Both the position numbers and the translations under genes were made by a program. A stretch of DNA of 64,000 bases from Dehalococcoidia bacterium (GTDB lineage Bacteria; Chloroflexota; Dehalococcoidia; Plut-88900): the NCBI GenBank assembly GCA_965197585.1, contig OZ240215.1:1408001-1472000 (forward strand), in the 5' to 3' direction. Shown here piece by piece: positions 8,871-44,750 of this stretch (within the stretch, counting starts at the first letter, position 1; each line of letters opens with the position of its first letter). The notes beneath the pieces were generated by a model. That model did not search any database, was not told the DNA's origin, and worked only from the letters and a program-made list of their open reading frames with translations.

Positions 8871-8911
8871 TAAAGCCGATGCGTCCGCCTGAGGCGGACG
8901 CATCGGCTTTA
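8871..8911. terminator. Perfect 19-bp inverted repeat downstream of ftsY (likely terminator; core matches a dispersed GTCCGCC-n3-GGCGGA hairpin)
   Basis: TAAAGCCGATGCGTCCGCC-TGA-GGCGGACGCATCGGCTTTA. Confidence 0.7.
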
Positions 8912-19694: not shown

Positions 19695-19962
19695 TCGTGC
19701 ACCCCCCGTCGATCAAGTCCCCTTGGCCTGTTGTCCGCCGCCGGGCTCAGACCAGGCGACCCTACGGCACCCAGAATTGACCGCTTACCGTTGCTTCCTT
19801 CCGGACCTGGCGGGGTTCACAGTTTTCTGCCGCGTAGGACCCAATCTTCAGCGCCCGCCGAACGGGTACAGCGTCCGAAGGTCCAGGACCTCTAGGGGGA
19901 ATTCAGTCCCGCTTTAGCGGATTGCGGGTTCAGGGCACCGCTAGCTCCCCACCTAGCACGAC
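19695..19962 (-). ncRNA. ffs: Large (Alu-domain-containing) bacterial SRP RNA
   Basis: Minus strand reads CGTGCTAGGTGGGGAGCTAGCGGTGCCCTGAACCCGCAATCCGC...GTGAACCCCGCCAGGTCCGGAAGGAAGCAACGG...GTGCACG. It has the helix 8 motif, a Bacillus-type 5' Alu domain and paired termini. Confidence 0.95.
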
Positions 19963-20089
19963 CTGGACATATGTTATTTGACGCCCATTCCGGTGTCAAT
20001 TAAAAGACGGATATGTGACAGCGCGTGTCTCGGTAGCTGAGCGCCCCGCCAAAATGATCCCGTTCACATAGAGGGGTGACATATCCCCC

Positions 20090-20118
20090 TTGACTTTATA
20101 AGACAGGTGTTCTATTAT
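20090..20118 (+). promoter_or_regulatory. sigma70 promoter with LexA-like box (element copy 1)
   Basis: TTGACT-17-TATTAT; AGAC-AGGT-GTTC at 20101-20112 abuts the -10. Confidence 0.75.
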
Positions 20119-20124
20119 TGGGCC

Positions 20125-20875
20125 AGTCTAGACCCGACACTCACCTTAAGGAGGTAACCACAACCCAGGGAAGCCCACCCGGCCCCACCCGAGGACTCAA
20201 CGTCTAAGCCCATCCCAAAGGGCGGCCCACAAGCCGCCCCACGGCTCAAGCAAACGACGCCATCTCCTCATCCCCACCGGGTCCCGTGCACCCTTCCCTG
20301 ACCCCCAGGCGATGGAAAGACGCCCTGGTTCGCTATCGTTCCATGTGAACCCCCTCTAAGACGCTTCAGCCTCTTACAGGGAAAATCTCCCTTGGGAGTA
20401 ACCTGCTCTTTAGAGCGGAATTGCAGTCGGATAGGCCCGGCGCCGAGGTCCTCTCGGTGCCCCGACTGCTCAATAAAGCCGGGAGCCGGTGGTCCCTGCG
20501 CTCCGGGTCGCACCGGCAAACTTGGACACATTACACCTGCAAGAGGCTCACGCCGGACGCTGGACGAGCCTCCTTGCCGCCCTTATGCGGTGCAGCCAAC
20601 CCCCGGAGTCGGGCTCGGACCTGCTGGCCCTGTCGGTCCCTTCCCATGTCCAGCGTATACAGGGCCACAGGCCGCAGCAGCGGCAAAAGCGGGCCGGACG
20701 CCCTTGCCCCGGGGCGTCGGAGCACCCGAAGCACATGAACGGGGGCATCGTCCAGCAAGCGTCTTCCATCGTCAACCCAAAACCCAACAGACAGAACTGA
20801 AACCGAACCCCCACAATCGAAGATGCTGCAAGTCCGTCGTAGGCGGGGAACATCCTCCTCTGGAGGATCCGCCAC
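20125..20875 (+). ncRNA. Putative large structured ncRNA, family copy 1
   Basis: No credible ORF. 20148-20316 is homologous to 44176-44342. Long-range helix 20308-20323/20759-20773; many internal hairpins; AACTGAA at 20795; terminal hairpin 20842-20873. Confidence 0.6.
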
Positions 20876-32004: not shown

Positions 32005-32080
<76 letters not shown>

Positions 32081-32587: not shown

Positions 32588-33961
32588 CTACTGGATGTCG
32601 GCGAGGAATTCTTCCATTCTCTCAGCCAGGGAGTCCAGGTTGGTTCCCAGCCATACCTCGTCAACCACGACGGCCTTTTCAAGCGCTGACGGGGAGGTGG
32701 GGAGGTTGTCTATGGTGAGCTGATCAACGACGTCAGTGTTAACCAACGGCAGGGCCTGAAGGTTCAGGGGGCCGTAGGTGATGTACTTGATCATCTCTAC
32801 GTTGATGTGCGGCTCAGCAGTCCAGGAGATGAAGAGTTCGGCCAGGGTCTTGTTGGGCGAGCCCTTCGGGATGTAGAACACGTCGGTCTGGTTCAGGTGT
32901 CCGCACTCGAAGCAGTAGTGGAGGTTGTCGCCGCCTTCTTCCTGCTGGGCGTTCCAGATTCGACCGTTCCAGGCCGTGCACATGTCCGCTTGGTCGGTTA
33001 TCAAGGCTTGGGGGCAGTCCGTACCGCCGGTCCACCAGAACTGGATGTCATTCTTGATCTTTTCCAGCTCCTCAAAGGACTGGTCAACCTGCTCAGGGGT
33101 GAGCTTGGCTATGGCGTTCCGTCCTTCTACGGTTTCCAGGATCTCAGGGGTGCGCCTGAAGTGGGCGAAGAAGATGTTCTCGTTCACCCTGCGACCCATC
33201 CACCTGGTGCCGGGGAAGTTCTCGGTGTCCCAGAGGGCTTCCCAGTTGGTCGGGGCAACGCCGCCCCAAAGCTCGTCCACCTTGTTCTTCTGGTAGGCGA
33301 GACCCGTGGACCAGAGCACTCCGCCGCCGCCGCTCCAGGGAGTCACCGCAACTTGCGGGAAGAAGGGGAGGTAACGGTTGTGGATAGCCGGGGTCAGCTC
33401 TTCAAGGTCACCCGTCGGGCCAAGCTGGTAAACGGCCCTGGTACCAGAGTCGACTACGTCCCAGGTCACGTTTCCGGTTTCCACCATGGAACGGATCTTC
33501 GCGTACTCAACGGGGCTGTCTTCAATTAGATTGATGTTGAATTTATCCGCGAATGGTATGAAGTAGGCCTGCCTCTGGGCCGCCTGGTATGCGCCGCCCC
33601 AGGAAGTTACGTTGAGGCTCTGGCCGCTGTAGTTCGCCAGCTCCGCCTCAATTTCTTCGAAGGTACCCGGCTCATCTGCCGTCCATTCGGACATGGGACG
33701 GAGCGCAGCGGGTTCGGGTTCGGGTTCGGGTGCGGAGGTCGCCGTTACTACCGCGGCAGGCACTGCCGTGGCCGTGGCCTCGGCCTCCTCCTCCATCGCC
33801 GGCTCAGCCGTCGGCTCTTCCATCGCCGGCTCAGGTGTCGCCGTGGCGGCTTCGCCACAAGCGGCTACCACAAGCATGAGAGCCAGGACTAGTCCCAGCG
33901 CCCCGACGATGGCCCGGCGCCTGCCCAGGCTCATCTTGATTCGTTTCTTTCCTAATTGCAT
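32588..33961 (-). CDS. PotD/PotF-like extracellular solute-binding lipoprotein (paralog 1)
   Basis: Lipobox VAAC, acidic Pro/Ala linker, SWGGAYQAAQ, GNVTWDVVD, WNGR and YITYGP motifs. Confidence 0.85.
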   Translation of the reverse strand: MQLGKKRIKMSLGRRRAIVGALGLVLALMLVVAACGEAATATPEPAMEEPTAEPAMEEEAEATATAVPAAVVTATSAPEPEPEPAALRPMSEWTADEPGTFEEIEAELANYSGQSLNVTSWGGAYQAAQRQAYFIPFADKFNINLIEDSPVEYAKIRSMVETGNVTWDVVDSGTRAVYQLGPTGDLEELTPAIHNRYLPFFPQVAVTPWSGGGGVLWSTGLAYQKNKVDELWGGVAPTNWEALWDTENFPGTRWMGRRVNENIFFAHFRRTPEILETVEGRNAIAKLTPEQVDQSFEELEKIKNDIQFWWTGGTDCPQALITDQADMCTAWNGRIWNAQQEEGGDNLHYCFECGHLNQTDVFYIPKGSPNKTLAELFISWTAEPHINVEMIKYITYGPLNLQALPLVNTDVVDQLTIDNLPTSPSALEKAVVVDEVWLGTNLDSLAERMEEFLADIQ

Positions 33962-34351: not shown

Positions 34352-35662
34352 CTACTCCTGCAGTAGTTCCTGGAATTGTTCGATCAGCATTTGACCGTCA
34401 TCCAGGTTGGTGCCCAGCCAGTACTCATCCATGAGCACGACCTTCTCCAACGCGATGGGGGAAGTCGGCAGGGCATCCACAATCTCCGGAGCGAGCACCG
34501 AGGGCGCCAGGGCAACCGCGTCCGCGTGCAGAGGGCCGTAAGTGATGTAGTTGGAAACCTGGACGGCATTCTCCGGGAATCCCATCCACGCCAGGTACAG
34601 CTCCGATAGCTCTTTGTTGGGGGAGCCCTTAACTATCGAGTAGACGCCGGTCTGGTTGATGTGTCCACACTCGTAGCAGTAGTAGAGCGGAGAATTATCA
34701 TCCTCTTGCTGGGCGTTCCAGATCCTGCCGTTCCAGGCGGAGCATGTGTCGAAGTCACCTGCTATCAGTCCCTGGGGGCAATCGGTGCCGGTGTGCCACC
34801 AGTTGACCAGGTCGTCTTTTATCACCCTAAGGTGCTGGAGGGACTCTTCCACCTGTGCGTCGTCCAGGCTGCTTATGCTCTGTCTGCCCTCGACCGTTTC
34901 CAACAGCTCCGGATGGAGCGCCATCTGGGCAAAGATCACGTTCTCGTTGGGCCGGTCACCCAGGGACCTGTATCCGGGAACGCCTTCAACATCCCAGAAG
35001 TCGGCCCAACTCGTGGGAGCGCCGTCGTGATTGGGGTAGGCGTCGAGACTGTAGGCCAGACCGGTTGACCACATGATGCCGGCGCCGCCGCTCCAAGGCG
35101 TGACGGTAATGGCAGGATACCCGTCCAGGTAGCCGCTGTGGATCGCCGGATCCAGTTCTTCCAGGAAGCCGGGAATGCCGAGGGTGTAGACCCACCTGGT
35201 GCCGAAGTCGACGACGTCCCAGGTCACGTTGCCCGTTTCCGCCATCGCCTTTATCTTGGCCAGCTCGACGGGGCTGTCTTCAACTATCCCAATCCCGAAC
35301 TTATCCGCGAAGGGGATCATGTGGCCCTGTCTGACGGCCGCCTGCCAGCCGCCGCCCCAGCTGGTCTGGTTTAAGCTCTGGCCGCGGTATTTGGTCAGCT
35401 CCGCCTCGATCTCAGCCAAGGTGGCCGGATTCTCTTCCGTCCACTCCGACCGAGGCCTGACGTGGCTCACCATCGCATCCCCATCGTCCATGGCATCGCC
35501 ATCGTCCATGGTCGTGTCCGGTTCCTCGGGTTCGGGGGTCGCGGTCGCAGACTCGCCGCACGCTGCGCCTACTAGCAACGCCATCGCCAGGACGCTAAGT
35601 ACGGCAAGCAATGTCCACTTCTCGGTCAATCTTCGTCTCAAGGTCGTAGATATTTGTCTCAT
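34352..35662 (-). CDS. PotD/PotF-like extracellular solute-binding lipoprotein (paralog 2)
   Basis: Lipobox GAAC; collinear with 32588-33961 (SWGGGWQAAV, GNVTWDVVD, GTDCPQ, CYECGH); GGAGG SD. Confidence 0.85.
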   Translation of the reverse strand: MRQISTTLRRRLTEKWTLLAVLSVLAMALLVGAACGESATATPEPEEPDTTMDDGDAMDDGDAMVSHVRPRSEWTEENPATLAEIEAELTKYRGQSLNQTSWGGGWQAAVRQGHMIPFADKFGIGIVEDSPVELAKIKAMAETGNVTWDVVDFGTRWVYTLGIPGFLEELDPAIHSGYLDGYPAITVTPWSGGAGIMWSTGLAYSLDAYPNHDGAPTSWADFWDVEGVPGYRSLGDRPNENVIFAQMALHPELLETVEGRQSISSLDDAQVEESLQHLRVIKDDLVNWWHTGTDCPQGLIAGDFDTCSAWNGRIWNAQQEDDNSPLYYCYECGHINQTGVYSIVKGSPNKELSELYLAWMGFPENAVQVSNYITYGPLHADAVALAPSVLAPEIVDALPTSPIALEKVVLMDEYWLGTNLDDGQMLIEQFQELLQE

Positions 35663-35920
35663 ATTCCCTCCTTCACCGAGTTGTTCATCCGTGTCTGGAT
35701 GGCTTCCATTGGTCTAATGGCAGCCCGTTTTAACGGTTTTGCCTGAAGGTAAAAGAGTAACCTCCCCCCTTATAGAGATTAGGGGATTCTATAGACGGGC
35801 CACTCCATTTGTCAAATTTTGCCCATCCCAGCGCTTCGTCAAACGGCCTCTCAGTACCGCCCAACTACTCGTAAAGTACTGATGGTATACTCCCCCCACC
35901 CAACCCCGAGAGGTAAACCG

Positions 35921-37075
35921 TTGCAGCACAACCCTAATCTTCCCTTCACAGCCGACGAATATCGTATACGGGTCGAAAAGACCCTTGAAGCCATGAATAG
36001 CAAAGGCCTCGACGGCCTGATGATTCACTCGCCTGAAAACATCTACTATCTCACCGGCTACCACAGCGTCGGATATTTCACCTATACCGCACTTATTCTT
36101 ACTTCCAAGGGTGCGACCATAGTGGCGAGAAGCCTGCTATCCAGTATGGTAGAGCACACTTCCTGGGTTGATGACTTCCAAGGCTGGACCGACACCCAGG
36201 ACCCCATCACCACTACTAAAATCGCCCTCGACTCCGCCGGGCTTATCGGCAAGAACGTTGGATATGACCAGCAGGCGTGGTTCTATAACATCGGGCATCA
36301 CAATGCACTGGTTGCCAGCTGCGGCGCCACGAACTTCGTCGAGACGGCAGGCCTCGTCGAGGTTGTCCGCCGGTTCAAGTCACCCCAGGAGGTCGCATAC
36401 ATCCGGGAAGCCGCACGGACTTGCAAGGCCGCTATGCAGGGCTGCATCGACGCTATAGAAGAAGGCGCCACCGAGAATGACGCCGCTGCCTCCGCATATT
36501 ACGAATCCATCAAGGCGGGCAGCGAGTATCTGGGCCACGCTATGCTCGTGGCTACCGGCGCCCGGAGCGGCATCGGATTCACCACCTGGGAGCGGAACCC
36601 CATAAATCGCGGCGACCTTCTCTTCCTGGAAATGGGCGGGACCTATAAGCGCTACAACGCCGCCATGTCCCGCGGTGTCGTTGTCGGCGAGCCTTCCGAT
36701 CTAGCCAAACGCCTGGCCGAAGCTTCGAGAGGCGCTCTCGAACGGGCCATAGAAGCGATGCAGCCCGGCGCGACCTCCGCCTCAGTAGACAGGGCCGCTC
36801 GAGGCTACATGGAAGAAAAGGGCCTCGGCGAGCACTTCCAACACCGCTGCGGCTACCTCATCGGCATCGGCTTTCCCCCCGACTGGGGCGAGGGCCGCTT
36901 GATGAGCATCATCGAGAACGACGAGACTCCCCTGGAACCCGGCCTTGTCTTCCACCTCGTCCCCGACGTCAAAATCGACGGCGAGATCGGTGTAATCTAC
37001 TCCGATACCATACTCGTAACCGACTCGGGCCCCGAGGTCCTGACCGACTTCCCCAGAGACCTGGTAATAAAATAA
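35921..37075 (+). CDS. M24 family hydrolase, ectoine hydrolase DoeA/EutD-like
   Basis: LPFTADEY, ENIYYLTGY, KSPQE and HRCGYLIGIGFPPDWGE motifs; TTG 35921 follows GAGG. Confidence 0.8.
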   Translation: MQHNPNLPFTADEYRIRVEKTLEAMNSKGLDGLMIHSPENIYYLTGYHSVGYFTYTALILTSKGATIVARSLLSSMVEHTSWVDDFQGWTDTQDPITTTKIALDSAGLIGKNVGYDQQAWFYNIGHHNALVASCGATNFVETAGLVEVVRRFKSPQEVAYIREAARTCKAAMQGCIDAIEEGATENDAAASAYYESIKAGSEYLGHAMLVATGARSGIGFTTWERNPINRGDLLFLEMGGTYKRYNAAMSRGVVVGEPSDLAKRLAEASRGALERAIEAMQPGATSASVDRAARGYMEEKGLGEHFQHRCGYLIGIGFPPDWGEGRLMSIIENDETPLEPGLVFHLVPDVKIDGEIGVIYSDTILVTDSGPEVLTDFPRDLVIK

Positions 37076-37117
37076 TACCGCTCCCAAGAACCTCCCCCCA
37101 TCCCTTTCTCTCATGCC

Positions 37118-37590
37118 ATTCCGCGGGGTAGGGCCGCTCACCCTGAGCGAGCTGGAAGTGCGCCGTGCTGTAAGTCCGCCTTTGGCGGAGAGCATCGAAG
37201 GATCGAGCGGGGGTGGCCCACGTACAGCCAATCCGTCACGCCCGCCTTCATCCCAACCCAGCTTCTTTACACTGTCATTCCGAGGCTCCGCGAGGAATCT
37301 AGGACTTGCCCTCTCACACCCTTCCTCGCCTTTCCTCCCCCTCCCCACTTGGTAACGATATATCAATAAAACAGGGCGGGTGGGACTCAACTTATCCCGG
37401 CGGGGTCCGGAGGGGCGTCCCCCCCCCAACCCTCTCCCTCAACCCACCATTCCGAGGCCCCGCGAGGAATCTAGGACTTGCCCACTCACACATCTTACCC
37501 CCTCCCCAGCGTTGGGCCGCTCATGCTGAGGCTCTCGAAGTATGAGCGGGGGGCGGCCCGCGTTTGCCAATCCGTCGCGCCCGTCTTTCC
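37118..37590. repeat. Mosaic of REP-like palindromic repeats (cluster 1)
   Basis: GGGCCGCTCA..CTGAG..TCGAAG..GAGCGG at 37131-37210 and 37514-37549; CATTCCGAGGC.CCGCGAGGAATCTAGGACTTGCCC at about 37276 and 37448. Confidence 0.8.
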
Positions 37591-37651
37591 CCCGGACACC
37601 CCATTCCACCCCATCATCCTCTCACTCCCCGGTAGGTGTGGCATTACCCCC

Positions 37652-37681
37652 TTGACCCGGTATGAACACTTGTGCTATATT
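37652..37681 (+). promoter_or_regulatory. sigma70 promoter with LexA-like box (element copy 2)
   Basis: TTGACC-18-TATATT with extended -10 TG; GAAC-ACTT-GTGC at 37664-37675. Confidence 0.75.
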
Positions 37682-37687
37682 AGCCTC

Positions 37688-38650
37688 CAGGTCCCGACAC
37701 CCCACGTCGGCCCTAATCAAGGAAAGGTGGAACATCCGCCCAGCTGAAAGTCCGCCTTTGGCGGAGCGGAACCAAAGGAGTCCCATGAGTCGCACAAGCC
37801 TTCATAGGCCCCGTCGTTACCGAGCGGTATGTCACCGCCCGGCCCCCGGCACGCGCCTCCTTCCCAGCCCCTTTCCACCCACCATCCCCCAACTCAACTC
37901 CCACTACAAGCGCTGCCCAAAGGCCCTACGCCTACGCCTTCGCAGCGATCAATCACCGTCCTGTCCCCTGTATGGAAGGTTCCCGGACAAATCACGGCAC
38001 GCCCTTTCCAAGGACCACTGCCAAGTGTGCGCCCCATTCAAACGGCGCTTAGGTTTCGCCCCTTCAGGCGACGCCCTGGAGCACAGCGTCATGTCTCCAC
38101 CCTGGGCCATAGCGCCCTGTTCGGACTCCCACGGCCTAGACCTTGCCGGCGAGTCCGAACAGTCGGATGAGCGCCGACTCAAAACCAACGCACCTTTTAC
38201 GGATTCCACCGTCGTCACCATCGGAGATCTCCGGTCTACGAACGCCGGTCTCGGGTCCCCGCTCCCATCCCTTGGGATGGTCGAGCACTTCTGGTGGTCG
38301 GGACTGCCCCACAGCGAGACTTCCTCGCGTCTCTTCCACATCCCCTCAGAAGTTCGGGGCTGTCGCAAAGCCGGCTTCGATGTGGAATATCCGCTGTCGC
38401 GGACAACACCCATCGGTACAGGCGTCGCCGTCTTCCTGCGCAACCGTCCGGGACCTTCCATCCCCTCCCCCCACCGTTTACTCCCTCATTCCCGACTCCG
38501 ATCGGGAATCTATCCCCGGAAGCGGGGCCGGGGCGCTCCCTCCCCCCGTAGGGACGACCGGCTGGTCGCCCTGGGGTGGGGTCCGCCTCTTGTTCCCCCG
38601 CCACCCACGAAAGGAGCCCGCCTACCCGCCAACGCCCACAACTGAATGAC
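37688..38650 (+). ncRNA. Putative large structured ncRNA, family copy 2 (diverged)
   Basis: Long-range helix 37972-37988/38446-38461; shared CCCGACAC, ACTCAAC, CCCAAAGG and CCTG.CCCC leader motifs; AACTGAA at 38640; internal 12-bp helix 38117-38128/38151-38162. Confidence 0.55.
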
Positions 38651-38695
38651 CGCCGCCCCTGCATTCAGGCGTATGTACCGGTCAAAGGCCGGGGA

Positions 38696-39670
38696 TTAAC
38701 GGGTCTCCCGCCTTGCAACCCATCTGGGCTGGTCGCAAATGTCGCCCAGGAACTCCATCACCGTATGGGCCGCCAGGTAGGAGGTCACTCCCGTCCCGAC
38801 GTCCAGCTGCGGATTAACCTCGCACAGGTCAAACCCAATGATGTCGGCGTGCTCGGCCAGCACCTTCAGGGTCTTCTGGAGCTCCGCGTACATCATCCCG
38901 TTCGGCTCCGCCGAGACGCAGCCCGGGACCAGGCTCATATCCAGCACGTCTATGTCTATGGACACGTAACACCTGGCATTCGAGGGCAGCTCCTCCACCA
39001 GGTCCTTATGCCCCCTGTCCCGGAACTCTTCCATGCTTATGACGTGGTTACCGTCACGGAACGAATCATCGATGTACTCCTTGACATTACGCAGGCTGCG
39101 GATTCCAACCTGATATATCGACTCCACGTTCTGCATTGCGTTGATGTGCCGAAAGGCATGGCCGTTGGTGTACTCAAACCCGTGCGAAAACGGCGTGTAG
39201 TCTATGTGAGCGTCGAAGTGGAAGACGTATAGCGGCTCCTCGTAGGCCCGGACCACTGGGAAGGTGATGGCATGGTCGCCGCCCAGAACTACGGGCATTG
39301 CGCCTCTCTCCAGTACCTTCTTTGTCATGGCCGTGATGTTGTAGAAGGAGTCCTCGGCGTTGGTCGGTATGATCGGCGCGTCACCGACATCCGCGATGCG
39401 CCCGTTCTTCATCTCGTATTCCAGGTACTCCTTGTCCTCGGAGAAGTTGTAGAACCCCTCCTGTCCGAAGCGCAACGAGTGCTGCCGGATGCTCTGGGGC
39501 GCGAACCGTGCGCCGCCCATGAACGGCGAGCCCTCGTCCGTCGGGGCGCCCATGACCGCGATGTCGGCCTCCAGCTGGTCCAGATCCGTCACGATCCTCG
39601 ACCTCAAGAACGAAGGAATCCCGCTGAACGGCCAGACCTTCGCGCCACGATACATGTCATGTTGCTGCAT
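38696..39670 (-). CDS. Agmatinase / ureohydrolase family protein
   Basis: Canonical metal motifs GGDHAIT, DAHID, DIDVLD and EVNP. Confidence 0.9.
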   Translation of the reverse strand: MQQHDMYRGAKVWPFSGIPSFLRSRIVTDLDQLEADIAVMGAPTDEGSPFMGGARFAPQSIRQHSLRFGQEGFYNFSEDKEYLEYEMKNGRIADVGDAPIIPTNAEDSFYNITAMTKKVLERGAMPVVLGGDHAITFPVVRAYEEPLYVFHFDAHIDYTPFSHGFEYTNGHAFRHINAMQNVESIYQVGIRSLRNVKEYIDDSFRDGNHVISMEEFRDRGHKDLVEELPSNARCYVSIDIDVLDMSLVPGCVSAEPNGMMYAELQKTLKVLAEHADIIGFDLCEVNPQLDVGTGVTSYLAAHTVMEFLGDICDQPRWVARRETR

Positions 39671-43730: not shown

Positions 43731-44090
43731 CACCATTCCGATGCCCCGCGAGGAACCTAGGGCATAAGCCCGCCACTCACCTATTTAATCCCCAACCCCA
43801 CCCCCGCCCCCGAGCCGGAATCCAGGGAGGGGCCGCTCACACTGAGCCTGTTGTAAGTCCGCTGAGGCGGACCGAAGGGTCGAGCGGGGGCCACCCCACA
43901 CTGCCATCCCCCATCCGTCTTTCCTACGGAGGCAGGTCGCAGATGCGCCAAGGCGTGAACCCATCCCCCCTGAAGGCGCACCCCCGCCGAGCCGGGACTC
44001 CCTTCCCCAGGGGCTGTGGGGCCGCTCACCCTGAGGCACTCGAAGGGTCGAGCGGGAGGCCCCACACTTGCCGACCCGTCGCGCCTTCCC
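43731..44090. repeat. Mosaic of REP-like palindromic repeats (cluster 2)
   Basis: CATTCCGATGCCCCGCGAGGAACCTAG at 43734; GGGCCGCTCAC.CTGAG...CGAAGGGTCGAGCGG at about 43830-43886 and 44019-44055. Confidence 0.8.
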
Positions 44091-44111: not shown

Positions 44112-44141
44112 TTGACCTAATCAGGACATCTGTACTATTAT
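44112..44141 (+). promoter_or_regulatory. sigma70 promoter with LexA-like box (element copy 3)
   Basis: TTGACC-18-TATTAT; GGAC-ATCT-GTAC at 44124-44135. Confidence 0.75.
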
Positions 44142-44147
44142 CCCCCT

Positions 44148-44750
44148 TGAATGGCCAATCACACACCCTAAACCCAAGGAGGAACACACAACCCAGGGGG
44201 AACACCAGCCCCGGCCCCGAGGACTCAACGCCTAAGCCCATCCCAACGGCCCTCGCGCAGGCCCGCGGCACAAGCGAAAGTCGCCATCTCCTCATCCCAC
44301 CGGGTCCCGTGTCCTCTTCCCTGACCCCCATCAGGCGATGGATGGTCCACAATTTTAAGCGGCACGCTCCCCTCAAAGGAGCCCTGCCCAAATGAGCCCC
44401 GCTCACGCCGGGCCAAACACCTCGGGCCTTTACGCCCTTGGAAACATCTCCCCCGTCGTTCCCTTCGGAGACCCCCATACAACCAGCGACGGCAGCGAGA
44501 AAACGTGCTCCCCACCCCTCCGAGTGGGTCAGCCAAAACTGGTGGTAGAGATGCCCTCAAGCGAGAACCCCTCGCTTGTCTACCACGTGATAACAGAAGC
44601 ACGGGGCTGAACCAGGCTGGCCTCCCGCCCCCTGAATCCGAGTCCCGGACCTTCCATCGCCTGCCCTCCGTCACCAAGTAACAAAGTGAAAACGAAATCC
44701 CAACTGAATACACAATCCCTGAAGGGAAGACCCGCCGGTCTCCCTGGGAT
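44148..44750 (+). ncRNA. Putative large structured ncRNA, family copy 3
   Basis: Leader homologous to copy 1; 16/17-bp long-range helix 44332-44348/44647-44663; AACTGAA at 44702; terminal hairpin 44715-44750. Confidence 0.6.

Follow-up and report, generated by a model that had tools for sequence, protein, structure and literature searches.

A multi-copy, probably folded repeat of terminase descent that keeps a reading frame open in one genus of Dehalococcoidia

Positions 37972-38461 of a 64,000-nt stretch of a Dehalococcoidia genome (contig OZ240215.1; the whole stretch is called the window below) raise the question of whether they are kept for a fold or for a reading frame. The same 490 nt are closed by a pair of complementary arms and are crossed from end to end by an open reading frame (ORF) of 286 codons. 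A first-pass annotation of the window, made from its letters, had described them as a closing stem, shared between copies, around a core that might form a pseudoknot or a switch. The stretch was found to be the downstream two-thirds of a multi-copy unit of approximately 820 nt (37652-38475, + strand). We read this unit as terminase-derived, promoter-bearing, transcribed and folded, with a translation that would serve the RNA and not the peptide, and put the probability of this reading as a whole at about 0.6. Feature coordinates are collected in Table 1.

The unit, its copies and its fold

The stretch 37640-38480 gave 72 matches in its own 3.43-Mb genome. An nhmmer search of the same genome gave 37 matches, and a census of the promoter pattern described below gave 67 loci. 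Similar DNA was present in all eight other species of the genus and in none of three other genera of the bacterial family; in 29 other families of the class, a single weak match was seen. Among the genomes searched, the repeat is thus confined to one genus of Dehalococcoidia, where it forms a multi-copy family. The subfamily to which the ORF starting at 37785 belongs comprises 13 loci in its own genome.

Similarity between copies starts approximately 15 nt upstream of the -35 hexamer of a strong sigma-70-like promoter (37652-37681), which is followed by a short 5' untranslated region. This promoter matches the consensus at 10 of 12 positions, has a TG ahead of its -10 hexamer, and was the sole site found within 36900-38900 (mean in shuffled sequence, 0.3); it is conserved among the copies of the subfamily. 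The first hairpin of the leader reads CCGGC/GCCGG in one copy, a change on both of its sides. Nearly all copies start with ATG, a few with GTG, behind the same ribosome-binding site. At the other end, 33 distinct copies were compared, and their similarity is lost 12-16 nt past the 3' arm of the closing stem; the C-rich tail (38462-38475) is the last shared stretch and therefore marks the 3' edge of the repeat.

Hairpins resembling repetitive extragenic palindromes (REP-like hairpins) had been annotated in both the leader and the tail. The leader hairpin (37737-37775) is indeed a repeat and varies between copies, being present in some members of the subfamily and missing from others; sequence past approximately 38475 differs from copy to copy. 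REP-like hairpin repeats of several families crowd the intergenic regions around the copies (window 37113-37600, 38488-38650 and 43734-44067) and also insert within copies, in frame where they land in an ORF.

The closing-stem arms, ATGGAAGGTTCCCGGAC (37972-37988) and GTCCGGGACCTTCCAT (38446-38461), lie where the annotation had placed them and form 16 bp, a single T (37981) being bulged out. The four further pairings that it had listed are likewise perfect complements: the 12-bp helix 38117-38128/38151-38162, the CCATCC/GGATGG hairpin at 38265-38280, ACTTCTG/CAGAAGT (38287-38293/38347-38353), and TTCCACATC/GATGTGGAA (38334-38342/38379-38387). The last two helices do cross each other. The 490-nt stretch folded to -208.7 kcal/mol, compared with -172.0 +/- 5.8 kcal/mol for 100 dinucleotide shuffles (z = -6.3), and none of the 100 shuffles folded as well.

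Inner helices were compared in an alignment of 21 of the 27 arm-to-arm cores; six cores with large duplications were left out. The closing stem was paired in 98.8% of cells and invariant, with no variation that would test it. Best supported among the internal helices was the CCATCC hairpin, which was 95% paired and had compensatory changes at two pairs. The 12-bp helix was 56-68% paired, and therefore only about 7 bp of it are common to the copies. The 38287/38347 helix was 92% paired and almost invariant; its one pair changed on both sides occupies a column in which 9 of the 21 copies are unpaired. The helix that crosses it, 38334/38379, was 67-91% paired without any compensatory change; in 4 of the 21 copies a deletion affects its 3' strand. 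Its 5' strand (38334-38342) pairs elsewhere both in the single-sequence fold and in the consensus fold, and the two strands are not complementary in the parent terminase gene introduced below. RNAalifold returned 87 pairs, four of them compensatory, with a covariation term of -0.19. A fold is likely, given its stability relative to shuffles and the compensatory changes in one hairpin, and to this extent the structured RNA of the annotation stands; the pseudoknot or switch, which depends on the 38334/38379 helix, is without comparative support.

A wider comparison was made across subfamilies. The long-range ATGGA.../...TCCAT duplex, with arms 300-900 nt apart, occurs in 54 of the 67 promoter-bearing loci of the genome, which bears out the idea of one closing stem around differing cores and includes two further copies in the window, near 20310/20773 and 44341/44661. 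The outer seven pairs of the stem are fixed across subfamilies, and its inner part covaries between them (GGTCC/GGACC, GACGC/GCGTC, GACAC/GTGTC and GATGC/GCGTC). The GATGC/GCGTC variant contains a U.G pair that is possible solely on the + strand, on which many G.U variants were seen.

The second copy (window 20085-20775) has the same promoter type, an AAGGAGG leader without a start codon, and the arms ATGGAAAGACGCC/GGCGTCTTCCAT. Searched with nhmmer, its core (20300-20780) matched 24 copies of the family and none of the genes of the genome, so that a terminase origin is undetectable there. The third copy (window 44112-44662) has no ORF; its core (approximately 44397-44610) relates to the terminase segment (nhmmer E = 2.5e-8).

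The fold could be that of a purely non-coding structured RNA with a pseudoknot or switch in its core, the ORF being an accident of C-rich composition. The folding z-score of -6.3, a closing stem that is conserved within the subfamily and covaries between subfamilies, the hairpin with compensatory changes, and a sister family (family B) of the same architecture with no ORF all speak for such an RNA. Speaking against it are the crossing helix described above and the Rfam searches, in which no model matched the region at the gathering score (the whole window gave just signal recognition particle RNA and a tRNA) and the only matches in 36900-38900 at E <= 10 were three chance-level matches to eukaryotic families. 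Further objections come from the reading frame.

Relation to terminase genes

A profile built from the ORF family was searched against 1.84 billion representative sequences and found 167 proteins, the weak end of the list consisting of proteins of 485-586 aa. Three of six such long proteins matched PHROG families named 'terminase large subunit' (TerL); Pfam named none of the long terminase-like proteins. BLASTP aligned ORF residues 117-237 with residues 290-403 of protein P0211 (32% identity over 124 aa, E = 3e-15), and tblastn placed residues 86-254 of protein P0224 on window 37779-38342 (E = 3e-11). Two intact TerL-like homologues were located in the genome by tblastn, at 1117877-1119202 and 2872322-2873647. 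Every copy of the subfamily matches residues ~213-400 of the intact genes in the frame of the ORF, and nhmmer links repeat and genes as well. When repeat and gene were aligned as nucleotides, their similarity stopped exactly at the end of the 3' arm. Copies are 16-19% apart from each other and have approximately 68-71% nucleotide identity to the parent gene.

By these alignments, approximately 680 nt of the unit descend from an internal piece of the TerL gene of the same genome. The piece starts at the end of the ATPase half and extends into the first half of the nuclease domain. Both Walker motifs (A and B) of the TerL ATPase are missing from the repeat, which begins past them, and a complete RNase H-like nuclease domain is missing as well, since similarity ends approximately 75 codons before the GHDD-type motif. 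The annotated core accordingly changes its meaning: the stem was borne out, and the sequence that it encloses is a diverged piece of a terminase gene.

One of the two intact genes lies 1.5 kb upstream of an SPP1-type portal gene and the other stands alone between PEPCK-like and UbiA-like genes. Genomes of the genus carry one to four TerL-like genes (22 places), none with internal stops and one (in G001) matching in two pieces. At least 560 further homologous loci, at 50-58% identity, were found in organisms that are, by record titles, Dehalococcoidia and other Chloroflexota. The TerL-like genes look like a domesticated packaging gene or one of a gene transfer agent (GTA)-like element, one copy being an orphan between housekeeping genes. 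Approximately 7 kb from the terminase-portal cluster, a promoter of the family type followed by AAGGAGACCAC and ATG was seen (G000:C1:2865325, - strand); it may drive an ordinary gene.

The closing stem was also found in the genes. Intact TerL genes hold both arms within the coding sequence, 384 nt apart. Pattern searches located the arms in 9 of the 22 genes of the genus, at the same 384-nt distance in all nine; the duplexes reach -19 to -23 kcal/mol and occur in two registers. In the two genes of the own genome, the segment from arm to arm folded with z = -4.0 and -4.4, compared with -0.9 and -1.1 for equal-length control segments taken upstream in the same genes. Among 80 fetched TerL loci, 60 had both anchor motifs; the duplex z was below -2.5 in 6 of the 9 genus genes and below -2 in only 3 of 51 distant homologues (mean z -0.22). 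The closing stem therefore predates the repeat and was inherited from the TerL gene, its complementarity being particular to this genus. The CCATCC hairpin is weak or unpaired in the TerL genes and therefore arose in the repeat. Since its origin, the repeat has gained helices and lost amino-acid constraint.

Reading frame, peptide and role

Stop codons were counted in all three frames between the start codon and the far end of the 3' arm. In the own genome, the 11 copies with both arms (two loci without arms were left out) carried 0, 45 and 46 stops, compared with approximately 39 per frame expected from dinucleotide shuffles. With a strict start motif, 27 copies were collected from other species, all with an ORF of at least 201 aa; the 23 that have arms carried 1, 107 and 85 stops. 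A looser pattern applied to nine genomes gave 57 copies after 12 unrelated matches were rejected, and 54 of these had an ORF of 201-579 aa, the other three having 46-100 aa.

Length is kept in register as well. The distance from ATG to arm ranges from 524 to 1076 nt and is congruent to 2 modulo 3 in 11 of 11 copies of the own genome and 21 of 23 from other species. Internal stretches of 96 nt and 162 nt have been duplicated and a REP-like element of approximately 100 nt inserted, in each case in frame, and anchor-to-anchor distances stay in one residue class in 211 of 213 cases. Raw pairwise gap lengths show no multiple-of-three bias (132/124/109). The frame signal is present only in net anchor distances, and therefore small compensating gaps or alignment noise are common. 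One copy (L006; G000:C1:1577674-1578873) carries a 96-nt unit three times in tandem, in frame, and has an ORF of 455 aa.

Base composition does not account for the open frame. From position-specific base frequencies, 336 stops would be expected in 18,248 codons, and family B (39 copies of the same composition, with an AAGGAGG leader and no start codon) carries 101, 119 and 138 stops in its three frames. Within the whole family, this subfamily alone has a frame that stays open from its ATG across both arms and beyond the repeat. Two other explanations were considered and set aside. An ORF on the minus strand, starting from an ATG in the 3' arm (170 aa here), is not kept elsewhere, where it varies from 41 to 178 aa. 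Gene conversion from the intact genes is at odds with an identity of approximately 70% and with a frame that also crosses stretches absent from the genes.

These counts bear on the non-coding RNA of the first section. Both family B and frames 2 and 3 of the very same copies contain the expected stops, start and ribosome-binding site are conserved, and length changes come in multiples of three. The purely non-coding reading that the annotation implied does not agree with this, and we consider it very unlikely.

They bear equally on a functionless selfish repeat or decaying terminase pseudogene, in which frame and stem would be inherited and not yet eroded. Parent genes with the same arms and frame do exist, presence or absence of the repeat differs between species, REP-like repeats have inserted within and around copies, and the amino-acid sequence evolves neutrally, as shown below. 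Against erosion, copies at 68-71% identity to the parent and 16-19% from each other have 0 and 1 in-frame stops where the other frames have 45-107; when point changes alone were simulated, just 28% of copies stayed open at 8% divergence, and 9% did so at 16%. The new helices with compensatory changes postdate the split from the gene, and promoter, ribosome-binding site and start codon are conserved over nine species. A relic of this kind is regarded as quite improbable.

The open frame could also be that of a protein, here a small, basic and largely disordered one made from a truncated terminase nuclease domain, with the helices incidental; it might act, for example, as a dominant-negative inhibitor of phage or GTA packaging. 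The conserved ribosome-binding site and ATG/GTG start, the frame open in 54 of 57 copies and the frame-preserving insertions and deletions would all be expected of it. Gene callers have predicted 477 proteins of this kind in databases. The motif blocks DLAG, DSTVVT, VEHFWW and GTGV known from TerL are nearly invariant in 118 of these proteins, and C is slightly enriched at the third codon position of the ORF family (46.7%, compared with 36.5% and 34.5%).

The substitution pattern speaks against a protein. Changes are spread evenly over the three codon positions (1208/1298/1132), and the ratio of nonsynonymous to synonymous differences (pN/pS; 400 random pairs from 54 long ORFs) was 0.86 in frame, compared with 0.98 and 0.86 in the shifted frames. 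Windows of ten codons gave 0.44-1.44, none falling lower. As a positive control, the two intact TerL genes run through the same code gave 0.33 in frame and 1.13 and 1.76 in the shifted frames. Conserved blocks of the ORF family, including the motifs just named, are conserved at all three codon positions. The amino-acid sequence of the ORF is without constraint and carries no mark of purifying selection. The annotation had set codon-level conservation of the 37785-38645 frame against base-pair covariation: open frame, ribosome-binding site and start codon are conserved, and the codons themselves are not.

Other properties of the peptide agree with this. The repeat ends 12-16 nt past the 3' arm and the ORF continues into the flank; stop codon and C-terminus are therefore accidental. 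The ORF covers no more than half of the nuclease fold and lacks the GHDD motif of the full genes. AlphaFold2, run with 118 sequences, gave a mean confidence (pLDDT) of 52, a pTM of 0.13 and no secondary structure. No Pfam or PHROG family matched the main ORF or five further ORFs on both strands at E <= 1, a profile search against PDB sequences gave no match, and none of the 120 database proteins listed has a Pfam domain or name. A selected protein is, on this evidence, unlikely.

The preferred reading joins these results as follows. The + strand would be transcribed from the promoter at 37652-37681 and the RNA would fold into the stem-closed domain. In this subfamily, ribosomes would also read through the RNA, as its ribosome-binding site, start codon and open frame suggest. 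The frame may be kept open since premature termination would harm the RNA, the identity of the peptide being unimportant; the peptide would be a disordered by-product. An untranslated stretch of the RNA would be open to Rho-dependent termination or decay, because the RNA is 39% C and Rho is encoded; genes for Rho and for transfer-messenger RNA were found in the genome. We know of no bacterial regulatory RNA in which translation is kept merely to hold ribosomes on the RNA.

As to function, our leading guess is that the folded RNA mimics the part of the terminase message or gene that the stem closes and so acts on resident phage-like or GTA-like packaging; alternatively, the unit may simply be a selfish spreading repeat. 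A fuller version, in which dozens of promoter-driven mimics titrate or mislead a recogniser (the terminase itself, its regulator or a nuclease) and thereby control packaging or block related phages, the frame only retaining ribosomes, is speculative and seems rather improbable; the confinement of the TerL stem arms to the genus that bears the repeat fits this version.

Several points weigh against the translated, folded unit proposed here. Covariation within the subfamily is thin (4-5 compensatory pairs), and most helices rest on invariance. Copies share ancestry, so that the open-frame counts are non-independent events. Neither a mobility enzyme nor a terminal repeat or target duplication was seen (transposases were not searched for), and 'mobile' refers to presence or absence only. 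Evidence for RNA consists of contigs from four runs of sponge metatranscriptome libraries, which cover parts of the repeat; their summed depth is approximately 20-26 there and 0-3 over the flanks, a difference that may reflect copy number or carry-over of DNA. For the same reasons, contig depth was rejected as proof of transcription, of strand or of RNA ends. Translation is deduced from sequence signatures, and the role as a terminase mimic is putative. Shielding from Rho leaves unexplained how full-length RNA of family B, which is equally C-rich and has no ORF, would be produced.

If the proposed reading is true, the repeat would be a clear natural case of a fragment of a protein gene made into a proliferating, promoter-driven RNA unit, one branch of which is still translated. 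Frame, start codon and length class would be under selection and the amino acids would not. Such a signature defeats gene callers, which report hundreds of 'hypothetical proteins', as well as screens for non-coding RNA, which would discard the sequence as coding; ORFs of the family should not be annotated as ordinary proteins. The repeat family, in dozens of copies, is tied to a terminase gene conserved across hundreds of species of Dehalococcoidia and other Chloroflexota, and would offer a concrete handle on the control of phage-like or GTA-like packaging in uncultured bacteria. A full-text literature search, judged from the search results, gave nothing on such a family.

Insertion, known systems and the rest of the window

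The region lies in a 1.6-kb gap between a peptidase-like ORF (35819-37075, + strand) and an agmatinase-like ORF (38696-39670, - strand). In the three closest species (the own genome, G005 and G002), the intergenic site between these genes is filled with 1.6-2.3 kb that include a copy; in the other six it measures 64-81 nt and holds a terminator-like hairpin. Comparison of filled and empty sites indicates a composite 1.6-kb insertion into the terminator hairpin, without a clean target duplication. One contig from an RNA-library run (X3) joins 37071 to 38653. The copy at the orthologous site in G005 is just 84-87% identical, and the adjoining sequence is 90-93% identical. The inverted repeats are not at the ends of the unit: the 5' arm lies approximately 320 nt inside, and similarity starts upstream of the promoter. 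The reverse transcriptase family PF00078 had no match in the genome (one contig, 92% complete by marker genes), and retro-mobility was rejected on this ground.

Table 1. Coordinates of the repeat unit and its surroundings in the window
Feature	Position	Strand	Remarks
Sigma-70-like promoter	37652-37681	+	TTGACC, 18-nt spacer with TG, TATATT
Hairpin of the 5' untranslated region, CCGAC-N7-GTCGG	37694-37710	+	Directly past the inferred transcription start
REP-like hairpin inserted in the 5' untranslated region	37737-37775	+	Upstream of the start codon; repeat also at 37161-37199
Ribosome-binding site AAAGGAG, 4-nt spacer and ATG (at 37785)	37774-37787	+	Conserved genus-wide
ORF of 286 codons	37785-38645	+	Crosses both stem arms and leaves the repeat; stop in non-repeat flank
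Terminase-homologous segment (TerL-like residues ~213-400)	37779-38462	+	tblastn, BLASTP, nhmmer and nucleotide alignment
Closing stem, 5' arm	37972-37988	+	D-G-R-F-L-D codons in the parent gene
In-frame 72-nt stretch absent from both terminase genes	38060-38131	+	Carries the 5' strand of the 12-bp helix
Hairpin CCATCC/GGATGG	38265-38280	+	Internal helix with the best compensatory support; weak or unpaired in the parent genes
Closing stem, 3' arm	38446-38461	+	G-P/T/S-S-I codons in the parent gene
Short C-rich tail (CCCCTCCCCCC-like)	38462-38475	+	Last sequence common to the copies
Whole 1.6-kb inserted block (REP-like repeats and unit)	37076-38695		Between two convergent genes; missing in 6 of 8 congeners

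The repeat was compared with known systems. To the TerL genes of tailed phages and GTA-like elements it is homologous in ORF and core, in the same frame over residues ~213-400, with DLAG, DSTVVT, VEHFWW and GTGV included. It differs from them as an internal fragment without ATPase motifs, with half a nuclease domain and no predicted fold, which has its own promoter and start codon, many copies and no amino-acid constraint.

Large structured non-coding RNAs of bacteria known from comparative genomics include OLE, GOLLD, ROOL, raiA and HEARO/omega RNA. Like these, the repeat is several hundred nucleotides long, promoter-driven and intergenic, and a long-range helix closes a domain of many hairpins; unlike them, it has no Rfam match, is present dozens of times in a genome, goes back to a protein gene and, in this subfamily, maintains a frame.

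Miniature inverted-repeat transposable elements (MITEs), Correia elements and Rickettsia palindromic elements are non-autonomous repeats that bear promoters or keep to a frame. The repeat resembles them in being multi-copy, intergenic and polymorphic between species and in having an inverted repeat, and resembles Rickettsia palindromic elements in that in-frame sequence is tolerated within a reading frame. Unlike theirs, its inverted repeat is internal and not terminal, with approximately 320 nt of conserved promoter and leader outside it. Neither a target duplication nor a partner transposase was seen (no transposase search was made). The frame that it keeps is its own and not that of a host gene.

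SgrS/SgrT and RNAIII/hld are examples of dual-function RNAs, which combine a conserved fold and a translated frame in one transcript, as the repeat would. It differs from them in a frame that takes in the entire fold at a length of 220-490 codons, lacks a stop codon of its own and leaves the peptide unconstrained. Retron msr-msd RNA is similarly promoter-driven and closed by paired inverted repeats around a variable middle. No reverse transcriptase is found adjacent to the repeat or genome-wide, however, and the repeat is three times larger, multi-copy and, by its signatures, translated.

Other features of the window were noted. A bacterial large signal recognition particle RNA lies at 19695-19961 (- strand, 187 bits) and a tRNA-Arg(TCT) at 32005-32080 (+ strand). 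Positions 32634-33668 and 34401-35426 are approximately 71% identical at a spacing of 1758-1767 nt and probably represent a tandem pair of paralogous genes. At 8871-8911 there is a perfect palindrome of 20 bp, with a loop of 1 nt.

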